Assembly (NCBI GenBank): GCA_949432885.1
Contig: CASQXY010000002.1
Location: 98,252 to 162,251 of the forward strand
Reading direction: 5' to 3'
DNA length: 64,000 nucleotides
Source: an uncultured bacterium
Lineage (GTDB): Bacteria; Bacillota; Clostridia; Christensenellales; CAG-917
The notes beneath the pieces were generated by a model, which saw only the letters and a program-made list of their open reading frames with translations, searched no databases and was not told the origin of the DNA. The position numbers and the translations under genes were made by a program. The stretch's first letter is position 1, and each line of letters begins with the position of its first letter. This document shows positions 3,090-47,778 of the stretch, piece by piece.

Positions 3090-5624
3090 ATGAAAAAGAA
3101 ATGTTTTATCACATTGATTGTTGCAATCATAATGCTTGTTTTTGTTTTCGTACTGGCGGCTTGCGACGGTGCGGCCGATACCTGCGACAATGCCGATAAG
3201 GGAATAAAGCCGCCCTCTATCGGTGACCACAACGATAACGTAGTGAAGTTGCCCGATATTGACAATCCTACCGTTGAAAATCCCGATGTAAACGCGGGAG
3301 GGAACGGCGCGGATAAAGCGCTTACCTTGGATACAGCATACATACAGGCGGCTGAATTCGGTTATGCGGGCAGCCGAGAGGAATTTGTTGCGACTGTGAG
3401 CGCGGGCAGCAGCGCCGATGTTGACGTACAGTCCGTAAGCGTAAACGACAGCGGCAATGTTATCGTCACGCTTACAAACGGGAAAACCGTCGATCTCGGC
3501 GCGATAGTGTGCGTACACAGATATTCCGATTGGGAGGTAGGGATAGCTCCTACGTGCTCCTCTCTGGGTTACAACTTGCGCATTTGCGATAAGTGCGGCG
3601 ACAAGGATTATGATTTTATCGAGGCAACGGGTCACGTATGGGACGACGGAAAAGTTGTAATCGAGCCGCTTTGCTACAAGGACGGCACTACGCTGTATAA
3701 CTGCACGAAGTGCGGCGCGGCGAAATCAGAGACGGCGGAAATGCTGGGACATAACTACGTAAACGGCGTTTGCGACAGATGCAAGGAGATTGAACCCGAC
3801 GAATGTCTTCGATTCTATCTGAATGACGATGGGACGCATTATATAGTAGATGGAAAATACGAATATCAGGATATTGCCGTGTCGGTCGTTATACCGAGCG
3901 TATACAACGGAATTTCGGTTAAAGAGATTTACAGCAGTGCGTTCAGTAATTATACAAAACTTCGCAAAGTTGTGATATCCGAGGGAATTGAAACTATAAG
4001 TGACCATGCGTTCAGAAACTGCGGAGTACTTGAAAGTGTCAGTATTCCCGAAGGCGTAACTCGTATGGGTAATATGGTATTTATGCATTCAAGTATACAA
4101 AGCATACATCTTCCCCAAAGTCTTACGTCCATAGGCAGGGATTTGGCTATCATGTGCGAGAATCTTGACTATATCGAGGTCGCGGAAGGAAACCCCGTAT
4201 ATCATAGCGCTGACAACTGTCTTATAGAAACGGAAAGCAAGGCGGTAATCTTGGGAACAAACAATAGCGTAATTCCCAAAGATGGCAGCGTCACTTCTAT
4301 CAAAAAGTTTGCCTTTATGGGAAGAACGGGGCTTACGAGCATAAATATTCCGTCGAGTATAACTCAGATAGAAAGCCGCGCATTCGAGCGTTGTTACAGA
4401 CTTGCGGAGGTGTACAACTACTCAGATCTGGATATCGTAGCAGGAAGTTCTGCCAATGGCGGCGGTGTTTCGTACTATGCATTGTACGTATACGGAATAG
4501 ATGATGACGGAAGCAAGCTCATTTCGACGGCGGACGGTTACGTTTTCGACGAGAAAGACGGAGTATATCAGCTTGTAGGTTATCGCGGAAATGAGACGGA
4601 TTTGACGTTGCCCTCCGACATACTGGATCACGATTATACTGTCCGCAACTATGCTTTTTACGGCACGGATATAACGAGCGTAGTCATTCCCGACAGCCTT
4701 GCGGATTTGGGAACGTACACGTTCAAAAATTGCCGCAAGCTCAGAAGCGTACAGCTCGGCAGCGGATTAAACGAAATCGGAGTGAGCGTCTTTGAGAGCT
4801 CCGGAATAGAGAGCATAGTTATCCCGGACAGTATCGCGGCAATAGGCATGTGCGCATTCTGTGAATGTGAAAATCTGCGCAGCGTTCAGTTTGGGAAAGG
4901 TATAACGAAAATCGGGTACAGAGCGTTCGATTATTCGGGACTTCAAAGCATTGTTCTCCCTGACAGCGTGACGGAAATCGGCAGTAGCGTTTTTGACAAT
5001 TGCGCTTCGCTTGAAAGCGTGATCTTGAGTAAGAATATAACCGCAATTCCCGAATATGCGTTTGAGAGATGCAAAGTCCTCAGATATATCGAATTGCCCG
5101 AAGGAATTACCGTTATAGGTCAAGACGCATTCAGCTATTCCGCACTTGAAAGCATAGTCATTCCAAACAGCGTAACTCAAATCGGGCAGGATGCTTTCTA
5201 TTATTGCCGCAGTCTGAAAAAAGCTGTCTTAGGAAAAGGGATTACCGAGATTCCCGCAGGATTGTTCCGCTATTGCGGAAGTCTTGAAAAGGTGAATTTC
5301 GTCGGCGATATTACGCTTATCGGGAATAATGCGTTCTATAAATGTGAAAGTCTCAAATATGTTGTCATACCCGAGAGCGTAACTCAAATCGGAAAATTCG
5401 CTTTCTTCGGCTGCGACAGCCTTAAAAACGTAATATTCGAAGATGCGACGGGTTGGAGCCGCACATATACGGAAGAGGGCTCATCTCCAGAAGCCGTTGC
5501 GGAAGAGACGATTGCCGATACGGAAGATGCGGCTAAACTGCTCAAATGGGGCATCGCCGGATATTATTCGTACAGCTACGTATGGATGAAGCAACCCGCC
5601 GGCGAAAGCGATAACGCGGCATGA
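3090..5624 (+). CDS. BspA-type leucine-rich-repeat (LRR_5-like) lipoprotein with Cys-rich N-terminal repeats
   Basis: 844 aa. Lipoprotein signal MKKKCFITLIVAIIMLVFVFVLAAC (lipobox LAAC). Cys-rich module (CSSLGYNLRICDKCGD..., CYKDGTTLYNCTKCGA..., VCDRCKE). More than 15 repeats of the form I.IP.SVT.IG..AF..C..L. AGGAGAGG RBS precedes the ATG. Confidence 0.88.
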   Translation: MKKKCFITLIVAIIMLVFVFVLAACDGAADTCDNADKGIKPPSIGDHNDNVVKLPDIDNPTVENPDVNAGGNGADKALTLDTAYIQAAEFGYAGSREEFVATVSAGSSADVDVQSVSVNDSGNVIVTLTNGKTVDLGAIVCVHRYSDWEVGIAPTCSSLGYNLRICDKCGDKDYDFIEATGHVWDDGKVVIEPLCYKDGTTLYNCTKCGAAKSETAEMLGHNYVNGVCDRCKEIEPDECLRFYLNDDGTHYIVDGKYEYQDIAVSVVIPSVYNGISVKEIYSSAFSNYTKLRKVVISEGIETISDHAFRNCGVLESVSIPEGVTRMGNMVFMHSSIQSIHLPQSLTSIGRDLAIMCENLDYIEVAEGNPVYHSADNCLIETESKAVILGTNNSVIPKDGSVTSIKKFAFMGRTGLTSINIPSSITQIESRAFERCYRLAEVYNYSDLDIVAGSSANGGGVSYYALYVYGIDDDGSKLISTADGYVFDEKDGVYQLVGYRGNETDLTLPSDILDHDYTVRNYAFYGTDITSVVIPDSLADLGTYTFKNCRKLRSVQLGSGLNEIGVSVFESSGIESIVIPDSIAAIGMCAFCECENLRSVQFGKGITKIGYRAFDYSGLQSIVLPDSVTEIGSSVFDNCASLESVILSKNITAIPEYAFERCKVLRYIELPEGITVIGQDAFSYSALESIVIPNSVTQIGQDAFYYCRSLKKAVLGKGITEIPAGLFRYCGSLEKVNFVGDITLIGNNAFYKCESLKYVVIPESVTQIGKFAFFGCDSLKNVIFEDATGWSRTYTEEGSSPEAVAEETIADTEDAAKLLKWGIAGYYSYSYVWMKQPAGESDNAA

Positions 5625-11754: not shown

Positions 11755-13836
11755 TCAATGCACCGAAAACAGCAAATCCCCATAATTCGGGAAAGGCCAG
11801 AAGTTCTTTGCCGTTTGAAGCTCCAACTTATCGCAGGTGTGGCGCAGGTTGTTCATTGCGGCGAGAACCTCGTCGCGGTAGCAACGTCCGCATTCTATGT
11901 GAATGCCGATAGAGTGCGCTTTATCAACGGCGGCTTTGAGCTCCGCAATCTGTTGTCTTGCCGCATTCAAAAGCTCGGCGAGAGTGTTTGCGGTTTCGAT
12001 TTCCGTTTCCGCATTTATGCCGACCGCGATGGAGTTTTTCGCCGTTTTTACAAGCGCGCCTTTGTATTCGAGCACTGCGGGCAGAATTTCCATAGTCGCC
12101 ATATCGAGCATTGTCATAGCCTCTATGTTGAGCAGGCGGCAGTAGTTTTCGATATAGATTTCCTCGCGGGATATAAGCTCGCGCTTGGTGAGTACGTTCT
12201 GACTTTCAAACAGCGCGATATTTTTTTCTGAGGTCAGGTAGGGCAGCGCGTCTATTGTGGAGGCGAGATTGAGCAAGCCGCGTTTCTTTGCCTCTTCCAC
12301 CCACTCGGCGGAGTAGTTGTTGCCGTTGAAGATAATTCTGCCGTGCTCCGTCATCACGCGCTTGATGATGGCGGTTATGCCCGCCTTTAAGTCGTCCGCG
12401 TTTTCCAGCTCATCCGCGAATTTGCCTAGCTGCTCCGCCATAATGGTGTTGAGCACCATATTAACCCCCGCAATGGACTGCGCGGAGCCCGGCATGCGGA
12501 ACTCGAACTTATTCCCCGTAAAAGCAAAGGGGGAGGTGCGGTTGCGGTCGGACGAATCCATTGCGAATTTGGGAAGCACGTGTACCCCTAGCTTAACCTC
12601 GCAGTTGGCGCGGCGGGAATACGTTCTACCGTCGGCGATGGCCTGCAATATTCCCGTAAGTTCGTCGCCGAGATACATGCTTATTATTGCGGGCGGAGCC
12701 TCGTTGGCGCCCAGACGGTGGTCGTTTGCGGCGGAGGACACGGATATGCGCAGCAAATCCTGATGCTCGTCCACGGCGGCTATGACAGCCGCGAGTATAA
12801 GCAGAAATTGCGCGTTGTCCTCGGGACTTCTGCCCGGCTCGAACAGATTGTGCCCGAAGTTGGTGGAGAGCGACCAGTTGTTGTGCTTGCCGCTTCCGTT
12901 CACGCCGTCGAAGGGCTTTTCGTGCAGAATGCAGGTCATTCCGTGCTTTGCCGCGACCTTTTTCATTATTTCCATAGTGAGCTGATTTTGGTCGGAAGCG
13001 ACGTTTACGGTCGTGAAAATGGGTGCGAATTCATGCTGTGCGGGAGCAACTTCGTTATGCTTAGTTTTGGCGAGTATGCCGAGCTTCCAAAGCTCCTCGT
13101 CCAGCTCCTTCATATACTTGACCACTTTGGGCTTTATCGCGCCGAAGTAATGGTCATCGAGCTCCTGTCCCTTGGGCGGACGCGCGCCGAACAGGGTTCT
13201 GCCTGTATAAAACAAGTCCTTGCGTTTTTCAAAGGTTGCGGTGTCCACAAGGAAATATTCCTGTTCGGAGCCGACGGTGGCGTTGAGGCGTTCGGTTTTT
13301 CTTCCGAACAGCTTCAAGAGCCGCAGACCCTGTCTGTTGACAGCTTCCATAGAGCGCAGAAGAGGAGTTTTTTTATCCAGCGCGTCCCCGTTGTAGGAGC
13401 AGAACGCCGTGGGAATGCACAGTATGCCGTCCTTTATAAACGCGAACGAGGTGGGGTCCCACGCGGTGTAGCCTCTCGCCTCGAAAGTGGAGCGCAGACC
13501 TCCGCTGGGGAAAGAGCTCGCGTCCGGTTCGCCTTTTATAAGCTCCTTGCCGCTGAGCTCCATAATCACGCCGCCCGACTTTGTGGGGGTGATAAAACTG
13601 TCGTGCTTCTCTGCGGTTATGCCCGTCATAGGCTGGAACCAGTGCGTGAAATGGGTGACTCCCCTTTCCACCGCCCATTCTTTCATCTCGTTTGCGATGA
13701 TATTGGCGACGTCTAGGGAGAGAGGAAGGTCGTTCGCGCAGCATCTTTTCAGTTCTTTGTACGTTTCTTTGGGCAGGCGGCGGGACATAACCCTGTCGTC
13801 GAAAACCAGACTGCCGTAAAGCTCGGACATAATCAT
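11755..13836 (-). CDS. glnN: glutamine synthetase, type III
   Basis: 693 aa, the length and N-terminal block typical of GSIII (FTHWFQPMTG...AEKHDSF...GGLRSTFEARGYTAWDP). NEVAPAQHEFAPIF catalytic block. AGGAGA RBS 8 nt upstream. Confidence 0.9.
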   Translation of the reverse strand: MIMSELYGSLVFDDRVMSRRLPKETYKELKRCCANDLPLSLDVANIIANEMKEWAVERGVTHFTHWFQPMTGITAEKHDSFITPTKSGGVIMELSGKELIKGEPDASSFPSGGLRSTFEARGYTAWDPTSFAFIKDGILCIPTAFCSYNGDALDKKTPLLRSMEAVNRQGLRLLKLFGRKTERLNATVGSEQEYFLVDTATFEKRKDLFYTGRTLFGARPPKGQELDDHYFGAIKPKVVKYMKELDEELWKLGILAKTKHNEVAPAQHEFAPIFTTVNVASDQNQLTMEIMKKVAAKHGMTCILHEKPFDGVNGSGKHNNWSLSTNFGHNLFEPGRSPEDNAQFLLILAAVIAAVDEHQDLLRISVSSAANDHRLGANEAPPAIISMYLGDELTGILQAIADGRTYSRRANCEVKLGVHVLPKFAMDSSDRNRTSPFAFTGNKFEFRMPGSAQSIAGVNMVLNTIMAEQLGKFADELENADDLKAGITAIIKRVMTEHGRIIFNGNNYSAEWVEEAKKRGLLNLASTIDALPYLTSEKNIALFESQNVLTKRELISREEIYIENYCRLLNIEAMTMLDMATMEILPAVLEYKGALVKTAKNSIAVGINAETEIETANTLAELLNAARQQIAELKAAVDKAHSIGIHIECGRCYRDEVLAAMNNLRHTCDKLELQTAKNFWPFPNYGDLLFSVH

Positions 13837-13993
13837 AAGAGCATTCTCCTGTGTAATCGCCGCAAAACATTTAGTTTTACGGAGTGTAAATTAGCTTAAT
13901 TATCCTTAATTATATGCTTAACCCAAAAAAAATCAAAACGGTTTTAGTGAAAATTTTTTATATATTATATAGTTTTTTTAATATTATAAAGTT

Positions 13994-14022
13994 TTGACAA
14001 AAAGCGTTATCGGTGGTATAGT
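13994..14022 (+). promoter_or_regulatory. sigma-A-type promoter (extended -10) upstream of purB
   Basis: TTGACA (13994-13999), 17-nt spacer, TGgTATAGT (-10 hexamer at 14017-14022). Confidence 0.6.
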
Positions 14023-14105
14023 GAAATCAGTCGGAAGTGTTCAATTTTTTTTTAGCGATATGCTGAAAAGGGTTAGGACACTTTTTCAATCTTGTGGAGG
14101 GCGAT

Positions 14106-15536
14106 ATGAACGATTACGTATCACCGCTTTGTGAAAGATATGCGGGCAAGAGAATGAAATACATTTTTTCTCCCGATTTCAAATTCAGCACTTGGCGCAG
14201 GCTTTGGATTGCGCTTGCCGAAGCCGAAAAGGAATTGGGCATTTGTATAACCGACGCTCAGATACAGCAGATGAAAGAGCATGTCGAAGATATCGACTAT
14301 GATTTTGCAAAGGCGAGGGAAAAGGAAGTCCGTCACGACGTCATGGCGCACGTGCTCACCTACGGCGAGGCATGCCCCGACGCAAAGCCTATAATTCATC
14401 TCGGCGCGACAAGCTGTTACGTCGGCGACAATACGGACGTAATTCAGATGAAAGAGGGCTTGCTCGAAATCAAGCGCGCTCTTGTCACCTGTATAAAATC
14501 CGTGCGCGAATTTGCGGACAAGCACAAGAATCTCGCCACTCTCGGATATACTCACTTTCAAGCGGCGCAGCCGACCACTGTAGGAAAGCGCGCAACGCTT
14601 TGGTTGCAGGATTTGGTTGTGGACTTGGAAACCCTCGATTTCGAGCTTTCGAGGCTCAAACTCCTAGGTTGCAAGGGTACGACGGGAACCGCCGCAAGTT
14701 TTGTTGAGCTGTTCGAGGGCGACTCCGCAAAGGTCAAGGCTCTCGACAGAATCATCGCAAACAAAATGGGCTTCGAGCACAGCGTCGAAGTCAGCGGTCA
14801 GACCTATACGCGCAAGGCGGATTACAACGTGATAAGCGTGCTTTGCGGCATAGCGCAGAGCGCGGCGAAGTTCTCCAACGATATAAGATTGCTTTCACAC
14901 CTCAAAGAGGTGGAGGAACCCTTTGAATCCAAGCAAATCGGCTCCTCGGCTATGGCATACAAGCGTAATCCCATGCGCAGCGAGCGCATAGCTTCGCTTG
15001 CGAGATACGTCATGTGCGATACGCTCAATCCCGCGATTACAGCGGCTACGCAATGGTTTGAGCGCACTCTCGACGACAGCGCGAACCGCCGTATCGCAAT
15101 CCCCGAAGCCTTCCTTGCGGTGGACGCAATACTTGCGCTTTACAACAATATTATAAGCGGACTGACCGTGTACGACAAGATTATAGAAAGGCATCTAAGC
15201 GCCGAGCTTCCGTTTATGGCAACGGAAAATATACTTATGTACTGCGTGAAGAACAAGGGCGGCGACAGACAGGCGTTGCACGAGGCAATACGCAAGCATT
15301 CCGTTGCGGCGGCAAAGGTCGTGAAGCAGGAGGGAGGAGACAACGATTTGCTCTCCCGTATTCTGAACGACGATACGTTCGGGCTGTCCGCACAGGAGCT
15401 CGAAAGCCTCCTCGACGTGCGAGCGTTTATCGGAATCGCGCCCGTACAGGTTGACGATTATCTGAAAAATACAGTTGACCCGTTGCTTGAAAGAAATAAG
15501 GACTATATCGGAGAAAGCGGCGAAATCAACGTGTAA
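14106..15536 (+). CDS. purB: adenylosuccinate lyase
   Basis: ORF 14094..15536. The ATG at 14106 follows GGAGGG. PLCERYAG, HLGATSCYVGDNTD, signature GSSAMAYKRNPMRSE. Confidence 0.93.
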   Translation: MNDYVSPLCERYAGKRMKYIFSPDFKFSTWRRLWIALAEAEKELGICITDAQIQQMKEHVEDIDYDFAKAREKEVRHDVMAHVLTYGEACPDAKPIIHLGATSCYVGDNTDVIQMKEGLLEIKRALVTCIKSVREFADKHKNLATLGYTHFQAAQPTTVGKRATLWLQDLVVDLETLDFELSRLKLLGCKGTTGTAASFVELFEGDSAKVKALDRIIANKMGFEHSVEVSGQTYTRKADYNVISVLCGIAQSAAKFSNDIRLLSHLKEVEEPFESKQIGSSAMAYKRNPMRSERIASLARYVMCDTLNPAITAATQWFERTLDDSANRRIAIPEAFLAVDAILALYNNIISGLTVYDKIIERHLSAELPFMATENILMYCVKNKGGDRQALHEAIRKHSVAAAKVVKQEGGDNDLLSRILNDDTFGLSAQELESLLDVRAFIGIAPVQVDDYLKNTVDPLLERNKDYIGESGEINV

Positions 15537-40213: not shown

Positions 40214-40215
40214 TT

Positions 40216-40575
40216 GCGCTATTTGGCGATATGCTTTGTCAGAAGCATTTTTGCTCACCGCATATCGTTAATGCAATGACCCCTTTCCGCAGGGTTTCCC
40301 ACAATCGCGTTCTCCCTGCTCATACGGGAGGAACCCATGCTTTATGGGTGACACCTGCGTTCGGGGGCGACAGCATAGAGCACTCATTATTTCACTCGTT
40401 CGGGGCAATAAAACACAGCTTGCCCCTCGCTTGTACAAAGAGCAGTCCTCGAAACCGCGCTCTCCTCGCCCTGCGCGTCGCGGTGCAGTCCCTTGAATAG
40501 CGACTCGTCGTGTACGTCTCCGCATAAGCCGAGTGCAACGGCGGAAAGTGCTTACAAAATCTCAATATAATATAT
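40216..40575 (+). repeat. composite repeat: third copy of the palindromic element, split by copy B (40278-40522) of the long structured element
   Basis: Left flank GCGCTATTTGGCGATATGCTTTGTCAGAAGCATTTT resembles the R1/R2 5' flank GCGCTATTGAGCGAATAACTTTGTCAG. Right flank GAAAGTGCTTACAAAATCTCAATAT resembles the 3' flank CTTTC..GTTCTTCATCTCAATAT. The interior aligns with copy C. Confidence 0.6.
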
Positions 40576-40604
40576 ATCTCAACCTAAAAAAAGAGAGGTA
40601 AATT

Positions 40605-42029: not shown

Positions 42030-42088
42030 CGTTAAAGCAATATCCGAAAGGACGAAACTGCAATGGCATAAAACTAAATAAAAATTGC

Positions 42089-42116
42089 AAAAAGCCGCGA
42101 TTAACGCGGCTTTTTG
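42089..42116. terminator. bidirectional intrinsic terminator after glgA
   Basis: AAAAAGCCGCG-ATTAA-CGCGGCTTTTT. Confidence 0.8.
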
Positions 42117-42203
42117 TATAAATAAACTATGAAATATGATATTTAATCGCAAAACATGATGCATTTGTTTCGTGATATTTCAAACAAAAGAAGTTTAAAA
42201 ATT

Positions 42204-43015
42204 TTATGCCCTAATATTCTTATCGGAACAGTGGACTACGAGCCGTTTTGTTTTGTGATTCCACTGCTTTCCCTTTTTTATGCCTTTCCACTGTTTGGAC
42301 GTGCCGTCGTAAAAAATATCTCTAAGACACTCGCAAAAATCAAAAGCCAGCCAGCCGATTTCGGTTACGCCCGAAGGAATGGTGACGCTTTTAAGATTGC
42401 TGCATAAAGTGAATGCGGCATTATCTATAAGATTCACTTCGCTCGGAATTTCTACGCTTTCAAGTTGTATGCATGAACTGAACGTTTGCGTTTTCTTAAA
42501 ACATATAAAGATATCGTACGGCTGCGTCGTAGCCTTGATTTTTCTATAAGTGGATTTGGCGGCGATGAGCTTTGCGACAAGCGATTTATAGTTTTCAAGT
42601 CTTTCGCTAGAACAGTTTATCGCGCCTAGATAATTTGGAGAAGTTTCGATGTCGGTGGAAACTATGTCATAAAAGGACGGGAAAGTTTCGCCTTGCGCGT
42701 TCGTCTCGAATATTACGCGCTGCTCGCAAAGGAGAAGCTCCCAATAAACGGAAGATAAGTCGCGGTTTTCGTATTTTTTCAACAAACGGCGGCAGGTAGC
42801 TTCCGCCGCCTTGAAGTTGAGACATTCTCGTAATGTTTGTGCTAGTGTAATAGTTTCAAAGAGCTCGGTATCGGTTTCAAGCTCATAGACGTTATGGTAG
42901 GAACGGCACTCGTAGATATTGTCGGTTGTAAGTTCCAGTCTGCCTCCGCATTAGGGCATTTTCTTTGTTTTAGTTGCTGCAAGACGGTTTCCTCTGTTTT
43001 AGTATATGACGGTAT
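42204..43015 (-). pseudogene. decayed paralogue of the zinc-ribbon/TIR/LRR gene (start lost, frameshift, TIR core and most LRRs deleted)
   Basis: ORF 42204..42785 aligns with aa 79-169 of the 45068..47350 product (VYWELLLCEQRVIFET...PYDIFICFKK). It then jumps directly to a last LRR unit plus cap (DIFYDGTSKQWKGIKKGKQWNHKTKRLVVHCSDKNI). Upstream, KCP (42958-42953) is followed by only 2 nt before CGGRLEL...YECRSYHNVYEL, a 1-nt deletion inside the CPxC zinc knuckle. The codon matching Met1 is ATA (43015-43013). Confidence 0.8.
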
Positions 43016-43130
43016 TATTGCAGCATATCCGACATAAGCAATGCAACGAGGTTTTTCGTTGAAAGGAAACGGATTACCTGTTTTACATTTCTCTTTATGT
43101 TTGTTATAATAAAAAGCAAATTCAAAGGTT

Positions 43131-44903
43131 ATGTCAAATATGAACAATCAAAAAAACAAAGCAAACAATCGTAATTCGAGTCTGCTAAGGAGATTCGTCG
43201 GCTATTACAGACCGCACAGAAAGCTGTTTATCATCGATATGATATGCGCTTTTGTCATATCCGTTTTCAATCTCGTATATCCCTACGTGACCAAGGAAAT
43301 CATCAACAACTACGTGCCCAACAGACTGCTCAATATGCTTATCGTCGGCGCGTGTCTGCTGCTCGGCTTTTACATTCTCAAATCAGTGCTCAACTTCGTG
43401 CTTCAATACTGGGGACACCTCGTGGGCGTGAGAATGCAGGCGGATATGCGCGCCCAGCTTTTCGGACATCTGCAAAAGCTGCCGTTCTCCTACTTCGACA
43501 ACAACAAGACGGGCGTTATAATGAGCAGAATGACAAACGACCTCTTCGAGATATCCGAGCTTGCCCACCACGGTCCGGAAGACGTGTTTCTGTCCTTGGT
43601 GACGATAGTGGGTTCGTTCATTATGCTGGCGTTTATCAACGTATATCTCGCGCTCATAGTGTTCGCATTCATTCCGCTTATAGTGATATGCACGGCGCTT
43701 ATGCGCAAACGTATGAACAGGGTGTTCGGCGAAGTGCGCGTAGTGCAGGGCGAGGTCAATGCGGATATAGAAAGTGCGATATCGGGAGTGCGCGTGTCTC
43801 GCGCATATACCGCGCAGGAGCATGAGAGCGGAAAGTTCGGGCGCGGCAACAAAAAATTCGTCGAGGCGAAGAGCAGACAGTATAGAGTCATGGGCGAGTT
43901 TTTCTCGACGATGATGTTTTTGATGGATTTTCTGTATTTCGCGGTGCTTATCGCGGGAGGTCTTTTCTTCTATTACGGCAAAATCGACGCTGGCGAGTTT
44001 ACCGCGTTCGTGCTGTATATAAGCACGCTCATCACTCCTATAAGAACTCTGACCACTATATTTGAGCAGATACAGGACGGCGCGACGGGATTCAGACGAT
44101 TCTGCGAGATTATGGACATAGAAGAGGAGTCCGAGTGCGAGAATGCCGTTGTTCCCGACAAGCTGAACGGCAATATCGTATTCGACGGAGTTACGTTCGG
44201 TTATGAGGCGTCGGACGGGAAAAATGTCATATCCGATTTCTGTATGAATGTGGAGGCGGGGAAGACAGTTGCGCTGGTGGGACCGTCGGGCGGCGGCAAG
44301 ACGACGATATGTCACCTTATTCCGCGCTTTTACGAAATCGACGGAGGTAGCATAACCATAGACGGTTATGACGTGAAAACGCTCGACAGACAGGCGTTGC
44401 GCAAGAATATCGGCATCGTCCAGCAAGATGTATTTTTGTTCAACGGAACAATAAAGGAAAATATAGCTTACGGTAACTTCGAGGCAAGTGACGAAGAGAT
44501 TATAAATGCGGCAAAGGCGGCGAATATACACGAGTACGTTATGAGTCTTCCCGACGGCTACGAAACGAACGTAGGAGAGAGGGGAGTCAAACTCTCGGGC
44601 GGACAAAAACAGAGGGTGTCCATCGCGCGCGCATTCCTCAAAAATCCGCCGATTTTGATATTGGACGAGGCGACTTCCGCTCTCGACAACGCGACGGAAA
44701 TGCTCATACAGGACGCGCTCAACAAACTGTCGGAAGGCAGAACGACAATTGTCGTCGCGCACAGACTGTCGACTGTGAAGAATGCCGACGAAATAATCGT
44801 CGTCACTCAAAAGGGAGTTGAAGAGCGCGGCAGCCACGAGCAGCTCATCGCCAAAGGCGGACTGTACAAAACTCTCTACGAGTATCAGTTGCTCAACGAG
44901 TGA
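43131..44903 (+). CDS. ABC transporter, fused permease/ATP-binding protein (MsbA/multidrug-exporter type)
   Basis: 590 aa. Six-TM ABC_membrane domain. Walker A GPSGGGKTT, Q-loop IGIVQQDVFLF, signature LSGGQKQR, Walker B ILILDEATSALD, H-loop VVAHRL. Confidence 0.92.
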   Translation: MSNMNNQKNKANNRNSSLLRRFVGYYRPHRKLFIIDMICAFVISVFNLVYPYVTKEIINNYVPNRLLNMLIVGACLLLGFYILKSVLNFVLQYWGHLVGVRMQADMRAQLFGHLQKLPFSYFDNNKTGVIMSRMTNDLFEISELAHHGPEDVFLSLVTIVGSFIMLAFINVYLALIVFAFIPLIVICTALMRKRMNRVFGEVRVVQGEVNADIESAISGVRVSRAYTAQEHESGKFGRGNKKFVEAKSRQYRVMGEFFSTMMFLMDFLYFAVLIAGGLFFYYGKIDAGEFTAFVLYISTLITPIRTLTTIFEQIQDGATGFRRFCEIMDIEEESECENAVVPDKLNGNIVFDGVTFGYEASDGKNVISDFCMNVEAGKTVALVGPSGGGKTTICHLIPRFYEIDGGSITIDGYDVKTLDRQALRKNIGIVQQDVFLFNGTIKENIAYGNFEASDEEIINAAKAANIHEYVMSLPDGYETNVGERGVKLSGGQKQRVSIARAFLKNPPILILDEATSALDNATEMLIQDALNKLSEGRTTIVVAHRLSTVKNADEIIVVTQKGVEERGSHEQLIAKGGLYKTLYEYQLLNE

Positions 44904-44973
44904 CTTATCGATAGCGGTTCATAATTCAGTTATGAGAATTGTAGGATATAATAGAAAACGAAGTTGATGCAAT

Positions 44974-45001
44974 AAAAACCGCAGTTAAACTGCGGTTTTT
45001 G
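44974..45001. terminator. bidirectional intrinsic terminator (ABC / TIR-LRR convergent pair)
   Basis: AAAAACCGCAG-TTAAA-CTGCGGTTTTT. Confidence 0.8.
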
Positions 45002-45067
45002 CTGTATTAAATGCTTTTATATAGCAAATCATATGATTGATACTGAGTGAATAATAGACAACTTATA

Positions 45068-47350
45068 TTAGAAAATCGATTTTTTCAAATCACCGTCGGT
45101 GCAATGTACTACATATTTACCTGTGCCGGCATGCCACTGATTTCCTTTGTATATCTTTTTCCATTCCTTAGTTGTACCGAGATAGTTGATATCCATAAGT
45201 CTGCTACAACCCTTGAATGCACGGTAATCTATGCTCGCCACGCTGTTCGGGATCATAATACATGTAAGCTCGCTACATCCTTCAAACGCACTGTAACCTA
45301 TTTTGGTCGCGCCAATTGGAATCGTGATACCTTCAAGTTTGCTACATCCTAAAAAGGAATAATTGCCTATGCTAGTTACGCTTCCGTCATTAGGTATTAT
45401 GCTGTTTTGGCAACCGATAACTAACGTCTTGCTTGAAGTTTCTATTATACAGTTCCCATCACTATGGTATTTTGCATTACCTCTTGCAACCGTTAAATTT
45501 GTAAGCGAATCGCAATTGCTGAATGCGCTCCAAGCGATATCCGTTACGCTGTCGGACATGATTATGCTTGTAAGTTTGGCGCAACCCTCGAAGGCATTCC
45601 AGCCTATCCTTTTCACGGAATTGGGAATAAGAGCGTCTGTCAGATTCTCTTGATTTCTGAATTGACTGTCTTTTATTTCCGTTGTACCCTCGGGGACGAT
45701 ATAATTCGGTTTAACAATTTTTATGGGTGCGGGAGCAGCAGGCTTTGCGACGGGCGCGTTTTTGATGATATTTCCGTCAGAGCAGTGAACGGTATAATCC
45801 TTGGTTTGCAAATCCCAACCGTTTACTTTGGTTATAGCATTCCAGTCCGTTTTTGTGCCTTTATAGTATATGTGTTCGAGTTGCGAGCAAAACGAAAGAG
45901 AGTCCGCACAGATATCCGTTACGCTTCGTGGAATGGTTATGCTTTTCAGATTTTCACAGCCGTTGAGAATCCATTCGTTTATCATTTTCAAATTGTCGGG
46001 CAGCACAATATTTGTCAAGCCCGTATTGGAGAACGCATCTTCTCCGATTTCATGCACACTGACCGGAAGGCTGATAGCCGTTAAATTTATACAATTGTCA
46101 AACGCGAAATCGCCAATCGAAGTTACACCGTTGGGAATCTCAACCTTTGTCAATTCCGAACAATCGGCAAATGCAAAATTTCCGACGCGTTTCACCGTAT
46201 TCGGGAGAGCGATTTCCTTCAAATCGGTACGCTCCTGAAATTCGTAATCTCCTATTTCTTTTGTGCCGTAGGGAACAATATAGTTTTGCACCGCGTTTTC
46301 CTTAGCAAGTTTTTGGGTAGCAATTTGTTGATTTGTCGGTTGCATATCAGGCGCGTTTTGTCCTGCGAATTGCTTTGAAAACGCTTCCATCATTTCCGCT
46401 TTGATTTTTGCGGCAAGTTCCGCCTCTCTGTCCACGGGATTCAGTATAGCTTTCACTGCCTGCGTAAGATTGTACAGCAAGCCTATATCGTCTCTTATCC
46501 CTTGGCAGCTTCTCAGCTCGTCGGGAAGCTGTTCAGGTTGGAAGTTGTTGCGGAAGATTGGAATTATAGATTTAGTCTGTGAAGTCGTGTTGCTCATCAT
46601 CTTGAAGCGAGACCACTCGTTCTTTACCCACTGCGAATTTATGTACGCGCTCTGCGAACAAATTATTATCATAATCTTCGCCGTATACAGAGCATGGTAG
46701 ATATTCGGCTCATATTCTCTTACTACGATATTGTTCAAAGACCTCTCGCTGAAAAATACCCTGTAATCGTCGTTGAGTTTGTTGTATAAGTCCATTGCGA
46801 GCTGGTAATCCTTGGTGAGTTTGGACGGGTCTTTTGTGGAAGATTTCTTGAAGCAGATGAATATATCATACGGCTTGGTCGTCTCGTTTATAGTCCTGTA
46901 CTGCTTTTTCGCAAGGTGCATTTTGTTTACAAGACTTACGTACGTAGAAATATTCGCGGGATTAAACTTGTTCGCGTATGAAATAGTCTGTCCGTAATAT
47001 TCGGACTCGTCTATTTCGGTTGCGGATATATCGTAAAAAGAGGGGAATTGCTCGCCGTTCTGGTCAGTCTCGAACATAACGCGCTGTTCGCAGAGGAGTA
47101 AATTCCAATAAACGTCTGTCAGGTTATCCCCGTCATATTCTTTGAGGAGCTTTTTATAAAGTAGTTCCGCCTGTTTGAAATTGAGGCTTTCGCGAAAGGT
47201 GGAAGCCAGCTCTATATCATGATACAGATTGGCGTTGCGTTCGTTGAGCTCATAAACATTGTGACAGGAACGGCACTCGTAGTTATTTCCCGACAGCAGA
47301 TCCAATTTACCGCCGCAGGTAGGACATTTTTTTTGCGTGAATGTGGGCAT
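45068..47350 (-). CDS. cytoplasmic zinc-ribbon / TIR-domain / tandem BspA-type LRR protein
   Basis: 760 aa with no signal peptide or TM segment. CPTC...CRSC zinc ribbon (aa 9-29). TIR-like block at about aa 160-290 (nt ~46481-46873): YDIFICFKK, RVFFSERSL, KIMIIICS, SQWVKNEWSRF. Two LRR_5-like modules, each ending in a Y.GT...W......W....Y.VHC.DG cap. GAGGGA RBS. Confidence 0.85.
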   Translation of the reverse strand: MPTFTQKKCPTCGGKLDLLSGNNYECRSCHNVYELNERNANLYHDIELASTFRESLNFKQAELLYKKLLKEYDGDNLTDVYWNLLLCEQRVMFETDQNGEQFPSFYDISATEIDESEYYGQTISYANKFNPANISTYVSLVNKMHLAKKQYRTINETTKPYDIFICFKKSSTKDPSKLTKDYQLAMDLYNKLNDDYRVFFSERSLNNIVVREYEPNIYHALYTAKIMIIICSQSAYINSQWVKNEWSRFKMMSNTTSQTKSIIPIFRNNFQPEQLPDELRSCQGIRDDIGLLYNLTQAVKAILNPVDREAELAAKIKAEMMEAFSKQFAGQNAPDMQPTNQQIATQKLAKENAVQNYIVPYGTKEIGDYEFQERTDLKEIALPNTVKRVGNFAFADCSELTKVEIPNGVTSIGDFAFDNCINLTAISLPVSVHEIGEDAFSNTGLTNIVLPDNLKMINEWILNGCENLKSITIPRSVTDICADSLSFCSQLEHIYYKGTKTDWNAITKVNGWDLQTKDYTVHCSDGNIIKNAPVAKPAAPAPIKIVKPNYIVPEGTTEIKDSQFRNQENLTDALIPNSVKRIGWNAFEGCAKLTSIIMSDSVTDIAWSAFSNCDSLTNLTVARGNAKYHSDGNCIIETSSKTLVIGCQNSIIPNDGSVTSIGNYSFLGCSKLEGITIPIGATKIGYSAFEGCSELTCIMIPNSVASIDYRAFKGCSRLMDINYLGTTKEWKKIYKGNQWHAGTGKYVVHCTDGDLKKSIF

Positions 47351-47379
47351 ATTTCCCTCGCATGGTTTGAATTACATAA

Positions 47380-47409
47380 ATCGTATCACCGAGGAAAGAA
47401 AATTGTCAA
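47380..47409 (-). promoter_or_regulatory. candidate promoter of the TIR-LRR gene
   Basis: Minus strand: TTGACA (47409-47404), 18-nt spacer, TGaTACGAT (-10 hexamer at 47385-47380). Confidence 0.4.
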
Positions 47410-47556
47410 GCGAGGGTTGCCGAATATATGTGCTTGATAGAGTAAGTTGGATCTATTCACTCGCACAAAGTGTGAGACATTCGGCGTCATCGCATATTTA
47501 GATCTGACAAACAAAACGCGCGAATTTACTTCGCGTTCTGGGTTCCCGCAAACGTC

Positions 47557-47610
47557 TATTGTTCCGTTGAACAAAAACACATCCTGCTGAACGATGCCGA
47601 CCTGTTTGCG
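47557..47610 (-). pseudogene. relic of a second ABC-transporter gene (Q-loop fragment only)
   Basis: The minus strand reads CGCAAACAGGTCGGCATCGTTCAGCAGGATGTGTTTTTGTTCAACGGAACAATA (..KQVGIVQQDVFLFNGTI..). This is roughly 85% identical by hand alignment to 44400-44453 of the intact ABC gene (RKNIGIVQQDVFLFNGTI). No similarity extends on either side. Confidence 0.7.
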
Positions 47611-47655
47611 GGGCAAATGGGTTACGGTTGGCGAAAAAATATATTATATAGATGT

Positions 47656-47684
47656 TTGACATATCTTGCGTAAATAAGTAAAAT
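47656..47684 (+). promoter_or_regulatory. sigma-A-type promoter of glgP
   Basis: TTGACA (47656-47661), 17-nt spacer, TAAAAT (47679-47684). Confidence 0.6.
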
Positions 47685-47778
47685 ATTAGTCGGTTGCGTT
47701 AATAATATGTTTGAATATATTATAATAAGGCATAATTTACTTTCGTCCGGGGGGGAAAGCGGAAGGAAGGTAGGTAAT

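Follow-up and report, generated by a model that had tools for sequence, protein, structure and literature searches.

TIR domains are common to the innate immunity of animals, plants and bacteria, and TIR enzymes (SARM1, AbTir, plant TNLs, TIR-STING and SPARTA) need self-association of their TIR domains for activity. To our knowledge, the bacterial TIR systems studied so far couple the TIR domain either to a separate sensor, as in Thoeris, CBASS and SPARTA, or to a STAND NTPase. The glutamate of a WxxxE motif in the C-helix is needed for NAD+ hydrolysis in TIR enzymes, as for example in AbTir, where the motif is W204/E208 (PMC10641520). Here we describe a gene for a protein with a TIR domain and leucine-rich repeats (LRRs), found in a 64,000-nucleotide stretch of DNA (the window) from an uncultured bacterium of the Christensenellales (assembly GCA_949432885.1, contig CASQXY010000002.1), and we suggest that this TIR-LRR protein would work most like a minimal pattern-recognition receptor, with its sensor fused directly to its effector. 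The gene and the parts of its 760-amino-acid (aa) product are as follows.

45068-47350, minus strand: complete TIR-LRR gene, 760 aa with an ATG start, from the open reading frame (ORF) list, Pfam and a full-length AlphaFold2 (AF2) model
47264-47326, minus strand: Cys4 zinc ribbon (C9, C12, C26, C29), each cysteine conserved in 98-100% of 104 family members; beta-strands at aa 15-34 of the model
46880-47242, minus strand: family-specific helical and beta-hairpin domain, aa 37-157, with one TPR-like repeat, from AF2 secondary structure and weak TPR matches at profile positions 40-85
46436-46873, minus strand: TIR domain, aa 160-305, from Pfam TIR_2, Foldseek and profile matches
46616-46630, minus strand: WxxxE motif of the C-helix, W241-V-K-N-E245, invariant and lying in model helix 240-255
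46289-46429, minus strand: helix and disordered linker from TIR to LRR, aa 308-354, with an AF2 helix at 308-330 and a local confidence score (pLDDT) below 50 at aa 332-354
45761-46288, minus strand: LRR_5 module 1, aa 355-530, with its cap at aa 496-526, from Pfam LRR_5, self-alignment, the cap motif and Foldseek
45707-45760, minus strand: Pro/Ala-rich flexible linker of 18 residues, aa 531-548, from the sequence, with pLDDT below 50 at aa 534-548
45080-45685, minus strand: LRR_5 module 2, aa 556-757, with its cap at aa 723-753, from Pfam LRR_5, self-alignment and AF2

The Pfam TIR_2 model (PF13676) matched aa 180-280 with an E-value of 8e-9 (36.4 bits against a gathering cut-off of 28), and when the TIR model was compared with the PDB by Foldseek the top matches were all TIR domains (SARM1, TIR-STING, AbTir, RUN1, L6, SPARTA TIR-APAZ and MyD88), with TM-scores relative to the target of 0.66-0.70. 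A TIR profile of the family also matched PDB entries for the TIR domains of TLR15 and TLR2 (E=5e-6) and for flax L6, AtTIR and RUN1. A single-sequence phmmer search of the N-terminal module (zinc ribbon, helical domain and TIR) against the PDB gave nothing relevant, and a profile of the whole module gave designed TPR proteins only, so that a profile restricted to the TIR domain was needed to obtain the TIR matches and an alignment of individual residues. Judged by profile and by model, aa 160-305 is a member of the TIR superfamily with a flavodoxin-like TIR fold; this agrees with an earlier note on this DNA, which had read a TIR-like block from the letters alone and had proposed the structural comparison that here returned SARM1 and AbTir.

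The same note had looked for the catalytic glutamate among E202, E212 and E214, and here it was mistaken: the position of E202 holds arginine in 84% of relatives, that of E212 is not conserved among them, and E214 is invariant, yet lies in a YEP motif at the junction of the BB-loop and helix alphaB. The predicted catalytic position is E245. None of the 63 aligned relatives deviates at W241, N244, E245 or W246 (nor at D162, F164, K168, E214, P215 or R248), and the family TIR profile aligns WVKNEW with the WCL(D/M)EL of L6, RUN1 and AtTIR, the glutamate of the plant WCLDEL being, as we take it, the catalytic residue of RUN1 and L6. With an invariant WxxxE motif that includes E245, the domain has the sequence features required of an enzyme, and it is most likely one that cleaves NAD+.

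The C-terminal half matched Pfam LRR_5 in four stretches (E=1.4e-80) and comprises two BspA-type modules, as had been read from the letters, which are 33% identical to one another and both end in a Y.GT..W....W....VHC.DG cap. Foldseek matched this part to 4gt6, 4fs7, 4h09, PcpA and TpLRR, and TpLRR could be superposed on it with a root-mean-square deviation of 1.5 Å over 146 columns. The nearest LRR_5 proteins are 30-43% identical to these LRRs and about 41 of 120 of them have no N-terminal hydrophobic segment; the expectation that LRR_5 repeats normally sit on secreted proteins therefore holds only by half. Among close relatives of the TIR-LRR protein the LRR half is only 28-38% identical, compared to 53-69% for the N-terminal module, and such a faster divergence of the LRR half is the behaviour expected of a recognition module. 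Elsewhere in the window a lipoprotein (3090-5624, lipobox LAAC) also carries LRR_5 repeats, which are 25-41% identical to this LRR half, and it lacks the Y.GT..W...W...V.C.DG cap that is present on both modules of the TIR-LRR protein.

No signal peptide, lipobox, wall anchor or transmembrane segment was found in the TIR-LRR protein, in which the highest Kyte-Doolittle value for any 19-aa window is 1.08, and by these sequence criteria the protein is cytoplasmic. The ORF is complete, with a ribosome-binding site (GAGGG) 4-5 nt 5' of the start codon, and the protein aligns with its homologues from residue 1-2, which indicates that the start codon is right and that no signal peptide was overlooked upstream. 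In an AF2 model of aa 1-345, built with 63 relatives (pLDDT 91, global confidence score pTM 0.80), a small beta ribbon is followed by a domain of helices and a beta-hairpin (37-157) and then by an alpha/beta domain of TIR type (160-305); Pfam zinc-ribbon models match the N-terminus weakly (E about 0.2), and the conserved residues of the helical domain are A49, R53, F58, A61, W82 and P103. Thus the soluble 760-aa ORF and the zinc ribbon and helical region at its N-terminus, all of which the earlier note had described, were recovered by the present analysis. In the full-length model (pLDDT 89.8, pTM 0.48) three high-confidence modules are joined by disordered linkers, and no contact of the TIR with the LRR modules is predicted confidently. 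Pfam detected no central STAND, NB-ARC or NACHT NTPase or other P-loop domain, a 45-aa helix and linker joining the TIR directly to the LRR part. The protein as modelled resembles modules on a flexible string, an arrangement compatible with activation by clustering.

We propose, tentatively and with a little less than even confidence, that ligand-induced clustering of this soluble protein switches on the NADase activity of its TIR domain. The TIR domain would be active only when several copies of the protein come together, and the two LRR_5 solenoids on their flexible linkers would be the recognition part. Once bound by the LRRs, a multivalent or oligomeric intracellular ligand would cluster the protein, and clustering would assemble the TIR active sites and so lead to NAD+ cleavage. 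The ligand would most plausibly be a protein of a phage or other invading element and the output would likeliest be direct NAD+ depletion with growth arrest; as no signal-responsive effector gene adjoins the TIR-LRR gene, depletion is likelier than a relay by a cyclic ADP-ribose isomer. NADase activity, the oligomerisation trigger, the nature of the ligand and hence the defence role are what we infer from the features above, and we regard a defence role as plausible. Of the earlier idea of an intracellular LRR-TIR sensor, the sensor-effector logic and a probable, WxxxE-based NADase competence are retained, but the defence-island context and the anti-phage role that went with it were not supported.

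Together the zinc ribbon, the helical domain and the TIR are conserved as a single module, and the TIR-LRR protein has all 21 invariant columns of its alignment (A1). When the N-terminal 332-345 aa were searched against a library of 1.84 billion representatives (50%-identity clusters), 5,271 clusters matched at E<=1e-3, 4,288 at E<=1e-10 and 1,118 at E<=1e-30 (the latter with 30-72% identity). At least 566 copies are present in species-representative genomes, all of them from gut, rumen or faecal anaerobes; the hosts are mostly Clostridia, with Bacteroidales, Lentisphaerae, Planctomycetes, Fibrobacterota, Sphaerochaetaceae and Anaerolineaceae also represented. A full-text literature search found no paper on this family.

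Among 103 members called in genome loci, 60 have a transmembrane helix (at around aa 500-600) followed by an outside domain of more than 150 aa, 23 have C-terminal transmembrane anchors only and 20 have no transmembrane segment; the corresponding numbers for 138 representatives are 47, 54 and 37. The N-terminal flank of the membrane helix is richer in Lys and Arg in 93 of 98 single-pass members (by a mean of +3.6), and positive charges on the TIR side of the helix indicate that the TIR module is inside and the C-terminal domain outside. The outside domains of the 60 members include DUF6273 (32 members), RCC1 (11), TPR, Flg_new, LRR_5, SH3_3, RHS, YARHG and GLUG, and the members without a transmembrane helix carry LRR_5, DUF6273, RCC1, ankyrin or TPR. 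LRR_5 repeats follow a membrane helix, with the N-terminus in and the C-terminus out, in at least nine representatives (P0269, P0251, P0275, P0359, P0271, P0272, P0252, P0256 and P0307), and occur without any helix in nine representatives, including all of the closest relatives of the TIR-LRR protein (P0241-P0245, 49-72% identical). Several clusters at 50% identity make up the membrane-less TIR-LRR_5 clade and all of them are intact (P0241-P0245, P0250 and P0270), and the window protein is a membrane-less offshoot of the zinc-ribbon/TIR family.

Paralogues stand in tandem arrays of two to five in 20 loci; these arrays, and the variety of C-terminal domains among relatives, also fit a variable recognition module. 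Same-strand arrays of three to five were seen at L025:3662-12288, L026:9986-16879, L078:4311-12976 and L171:3253-9647, and in the last of these the C-termini of the paralogues differ, one carrying LRR_5 and two not. A near relative of the window organism (L170:1-9437, glgP 90.6% identical) has a membrane-anchored family member, P0002, with an N-terminal module 57% identical to that of the window protein, at another site than in the window, about 7 kb downstream of glgP.

Some family ectodomains appear to be deliberately hypermutated by diversity-generating retroelements (DGRs), judging by mismatches between paired repeats at two loci. At the first, where the cassette is complete (L037, Bacteroidaceae metagenome-assembled genome (MAG) CAVAJR010000009.1, 9989-14523) the family member consists of zinc ribbon, TIR, TPR, transmembrane helix and DUF6273, and the last 125 nt of its gene form a variable repeat (12434-12558) which differs from a downstream template repeat (13166-13290) by 20 mismatches, 19 of them at template adenines. 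The target gene and the template repeat are separated by an Avd-like ORF (12675-13115), and after the template repeat comes a reverse transcriptase of 361 aa with a YMDD motif (13438-14523). At the second locus (L055, 9989-13238) an Avd-like ORF is likewise accompanied by a template repeat, the mismatches of which fall on adenines in 18 of 21 cases, but no intact reverse transcriptase is present. This mismatch signature speaks strongly for ligand recognition by the C-terminal domains. Both loci belong to the main branch of the family, and the TIR-LRR gene is not itself a DGR target.

At 47 of about 69 loci (for example L040:8068-9974, L022:8483-9940, L055:7514-9414 and L085:7329-9242, with about 43 others) the family gene has a co-oriented neighbour, in most cases immediately upstream, for an SPFH protein (Band_7_1 with multiple zinc ribbons), and a multi-pass membrane protein of about 230 aa is often encoded between the two. 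The arrangement recalls, as we see it, ydjG-ydjH-ydjI of B. subtilis, the Band_7_1 protein presumably being YdjI-like. A tblastn search for the Band_7_1 gene found no match in the window, and it is not near the closest relatives of the TIR-LRR gene, that of the locus L010 excepted.

The TIR-LRR gene lies in an insert in the glycogen cluster, the features of which are as follows.

42030-47706, no strand: lineage-specific 5.7-kb insert between glgA and glgP, holding a pseudogene, an ABC exporter gene, the TIR-LRR gene and an ABC relic; GC 43.9%
42204-42965, minus strand: decayed paralogue of the TIR-LRR gene, from tblastn and three-frame translation, with direct repeats D2 and D3 at a spacing of 4364-4367 nt
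43131-44903, plus strand: intact ABC exporter gene (ABC_membrane and ABC_tran, from Pfam), convergent with the TIR-LRR gene; GC at third codon positions (GC3) 64%, host-like
44956-45018, no strand: hairpin CCGCAGTT/AACTGCGG with A and T runs on its flanks, between the convergent ABC exporter and TIR-LRR genes, from inverted repeat I2 and the sequence
47380-47409, minus strand: promoter-like site TTGACA-18-TACGAT with a TG extension, just 5' of the TIR-LRR start, from a consensus scan and the sequence; a consensus match only
47557-47610, minus strand: relic, 54 nt long, of an ABC transporter gene, repeating 44400-44453 in inverted orientation (repeat I1, 87% complementary), with a blastx match of 18 aa at 89% identity

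In related metagenome loci of at least 12 kb, with a glgA 57-84% identical to that of the window, glgA is directly followed by glgP in 22 of 22 cases, which identifies the 5.7 kb present here as an insert; an exact-protein look-up of glgA for strains without it gave the same arrangement only. No integrase, transposase or bounding terminal repeats were found for the insert, in which the only repeats seen were those of the paralogue and the ABC relic. The position of that relic just 5' of the TIR-LRR gene and the paralogue repeats spaced by 4364 nt point to a history of duplication or inversion. The TIR-LRR gene is thus an accessory, lineage-specific insertion, and the interruption of the glycogen cluster and the decayed paralogue next door are as the earlier note had them. 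Having its own promoter-like site and a terminator-like hairpin the gene is monocistronic, as also proposed there, and the hairpin is likely a bidirectional terminator for the convergent ABC exporter and TIR-LRR genes. The gene had further been called AT-rich, with 30-43% GC set against about 57%, and it does stand below its surroundings (43.1% GC against 49.3% for the window, with a standard deviation of 2.6% over windows of the same size; GC3 49% against 62-67% for neighbouring genes), but by less than those figures implied. A functional link between the ABC exporter and the TIR-LRR gene was considered and rejected, as the exporter gene has host-like GC3 and adjoins no relative.

The decayed paralogue has an in-frame stop at the first zinc-ribbon cysteine and a C29-to-Y change, and its TIR is deleted after PYDIFICFKK, the remainder being fused to one LRR module with its cap. 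A paralogue only 4.4 kb away that is already a pseudogene suggests that the TIR-LRR protein could itself be a non-enzymatic or degenerating by-product of a surface-protein family, in which an LRR_5 ectodomain on a zinc-ribbon/TIR handle lost its helix and was left soluble, with no sensing role and perhaps decaying. The LRR half is indeed structurally closest to cell-surface LRR proteins of gut bacteria, to PcpA and to TpLRR, the same domain types lie outside the membrane in relatives, and a Pro/Ala-rich linker is typical of wall-spanning proteins. We nevertheless think this explanation quite improbable: the 760-aa ORF is intact and keeps all 21 family-invariant residues (including C26, C29 and the WxxxE motif), it belongs to a membrane-less clade of several intact clusters, the identical protein is present on seven contigs from different samples, the gene is served by a promoter-like site, a ribosome-binding site and a terminator of its own, and LRR_5 proteins without a signal peptide are common.

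Two other features of the window were seen. The glgD-glgA spacer (40214-40604, 391 nt) is relatively GC-rich; its first 260 nt or so are lacking in strain L002, which is otherwise near-identical, and the part at 40225-40500 folds somewhat better than shuffled sequences (z = -2.19) and has no Rfam match. The only Rfam match in the window is a tmRNA gene at 2131-2494 (RF00023, 147.8 bits).

Returning to ligand-induced clustering of a TIR NADase with a role in defence, a number of observations weigh against it. No known defence genes were found in the insert or within about 15 kb of it, the flanks consisting of glycogen and housekeeping Pfam domains, so the description of the locus as having features typical of a defence island was not supported: what accompanies the gene in the insert is an ABC exporter gene and relics. 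PADLOC, run on the TIR-LRR protein and the 193-aa paralogue, returned no match, the earlier note having proposed it as a check; the sole match among the relatives tested was a marginal one to a TIR model (E=1.3e-3, for the L007 protein, which is 69% identical), and NCBIfam likewise assigned no defence system, its model for the Thoeris III TIR protein (ThcB4) scoring 18.2 bits against a cut-off of 220. PADLOC matches among 150 neighbours of family members were scattered, with no recurrent system, and we claim no enrichment. The restriction of the family to gut and rumen anaerobes of several phyla fits a non-phage ecological function equally well. Most relatives expose their variable domain outside the cell, and with this domain mostly extracellular the sensing of phage proteins in the cytoplasm is not the ancestral logic of the family. 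The only conserved partner, the SPFH protein, hints at a function in organising the membrane or in signalling at the envelope, and its gene is absent from the window. Lastly, the TIR-LRR protein is 100% identical on seven public contigs, always with the same gene arrangement (gut-type MAGs, such as GCA_948721515.1, and two JGI metagenomes, from different samples), and so gives no indication of diversification between strains.

The family TIR protein, the SPFH protein and the small membrane protein are not represented among the PADLOC models. The close relatives are single genes at differing housekeeping sites (rplM/rpsI, lepA/hemW-like and dxs), and the survey of homologue neighbourhoods that had been suggested as a check on a defence role thus gave housekeeping genes on either side and, for the wider family, SPFH (Band_7_1) as the only recurrent partner. 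One close relative, 43% identical, is found in a context resembling a conflict locus, in a Christensenellaceae MAG (L010:6711-18602), among two AAA ATPases, coiled-coil proteins, a zinc-ribbon trypsin-like peptidase and a BrxL-like Lon protease, followed by a Band_7_1 and zinc-ribbon gene; it is the only close relative so placed. By tblastn the N-terminal module had no counterpart in 50,697 phage or 72,556 plasmid records, and only three relatives of the module were found among 2.9 million viral contigs (IMG/VR); the idea that the gene is borne by a phage or plasmid was rejected on these grounds.

These contexts could also be explained if the protein were a signalling or regulatory receptor and not part of defence. 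The family would then sense environmental, host or cell-cell cues across the membrane, its TIR domain serving as a scaffold or second-messenger generator together with the SPFH microdomain protein, and the TIR-LRR protein would be a soluble form of such a receptor, responsive to a cue inside the cell or acting as a modulator of its membrane-bound paralogues. In keeping with such a receptor, 60 of 103 genome members and 47 of 138 representatives combine a TIR and a helix, oriented N-in/C-out, with more than 120-150 aa of outside domain, and the SPFH gene at 47 of about 69 loci (often with the small membrane protein), the occurrence in gut and rumen anaerobes only, across phyla, the near absence from phages, plasmids and viral contigs and the housekeeping gene contexts all count in the same direction. 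The TIR-LRR protein, however, has neither membrane helix nor SPFH neighbour, and its gene is not linked to one for a transcription factor or any other output; its strictly conserved catalytic motif favours an enzyme over a pure scaffold, and the tandem arrays, retroelement hypermutation and patchy accessory distribution of the family are more typical of conflict systems. On balance we consider a signalling receptor rather unlikely.

The organism is gut-associated, the WxxxE-bearing bacterial TIR proteins include TcpB/BtpA, and BspA-type LRRs mediate host adhesion in oral bacteria. It is conceivable from this that the TIR-LRR protein is a host-directed effector like Tcp, Btp or TirS, which would be released and would interfere with host Toll-like receptor (TLR) signalling or NAD+ while its LRRs bind the host, but the protein has no signal peptide or secretion domain, no secretion-system genes are nearby, the TIR of the family is on the cytoplasmic side of the membrane, and the family occurs in many commensal and rumen lineages and in multi-copy arrays, all of which makes this highly improbable.

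If the TIR-LRR protein is activated by clustering as we propose, a direct TIR-LRR fusion would be the simplest possible receptor-effector design, and the same would hold for its membrane-spanning relatives; were the protein only a soluble remnant of a surface-protein family, it would be of minor interest. The family-level picture, with TLR-like topology, an SPFH partner and DGR targeting across phyla, could prove more novel if confirmed. One could suppose, somewhat doubtfully, that the family is an NTPase-free bacterial counterpart of the TLRs, in which a variable domain (LRR_5, DUF6273, RCC1 or another) is wired to a catalytic TIR and activated by clustering, mostly across the membrane with an SPFH scaffold, intracellularly in the clade of the window protein, and in some members with hypermutation by DGRs. 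The membrane-spanning relatives, with LRR, lectin-like and RCC1 ectodomains, reproduce TLR topology in bacteria, and if this supposition were true gut bacteria would hold a germline-encoded repertoire of pattern-recognition receptors, both at the surface and in the cytosol, diversified in part somatically. The family thus offers a testable entry to how commensals sense phages, competitors or the host.

In comparison with known systems, the TIR-LRR protein shares with the bacterial TIR NADases (AbTir, TcpB/BtpA, ThsB, TIR-STING and SPARTA TIR-APAZ) and SARM1 the TIR fold (with TM-scores up to 0.70 for AbTir and SARM1) and the WxxxE glutamate, and by analogy with them its activity would be expected to depend on oligomerisation as well. 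It is remote from the bacterial enzymes in sequence, matches no ThsB, CBASS or SPARTA model, and besides its TIR domain contains a family-specific N-terminus, made up of a helical domain and a Cys4 zinc ribbon, as well as LRR_5 modules in direct fusion. Unlike Thoeris, TIR-STING, SPARTA and CBASS it comes without a ThsA, STING, Argonaute or cyclase partner; no ThsA-like effector (SIR2/SLOG/Macro or transmembrane) stands beside it, the neighbours being the ABC exporter gene, glgA, glgP and the pseudogene. Because these defining partners and an NTPase are absent, the TIR-LRR protein is not a Thoeris, CBASS, SPARTA or NLR-type protein.

With the BspA/TpLRR-type LRR_5 surface proteins (4gt6, 4fs7, 4h09, PcpA and TpLRR) it shares the repeat type and fold, but its LRRs are fused to a cytoplasmic enzyme domain and it has no export signal or anchor; since it lacks an export signal, it is not a typical BspA surface protein. 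LRR and TIR together are common to it and to the TLRs, and at least nine family representatives have TLR topology (an LRR_5 ectodomain, one helix and a cytoplasmic TIR). The TIR-LRR protein itself has no membrane helix, the order is reversed with the TIR at the N-terminus, and the LRRs are of BspA/TpLRR type, so it is not a TLR; moreover its TIR keeps the enzymatic glutamate, whereas the TIR of TLRs is an adaptor scaffold, and there is no evidence for common descent of the whole architecture.

Plant TNL, Avs and bNACHT receptors are like the TIR-LRR protein in combining an N-terminal TIR effector with a C-terminal repeat sensor, and ligand-induced assembly is presumed for it as for them, but the protein has no central STAND, NB-ARC or NACHT NTPase, and assembly would consequently need the ligand or the N-terminal domain alone. 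The DGR-diversified sensors of multicellular bacteria, the closest parallel in the literature to the hypermutated relatives, attach to STAND NTPase or MoxR-vWA systems, with TIR among the effector domains (PMC10907252). Similar to these are the relatives at L037 and L055, in which a C-type-lectin-like DUF6273 with a hypermutation signature is linked to a TIR domain, although in this family, which lives in gut anaerobes and has no NTPase, the sensor is joined directly to the TIR, usually by way of a membrane helix.

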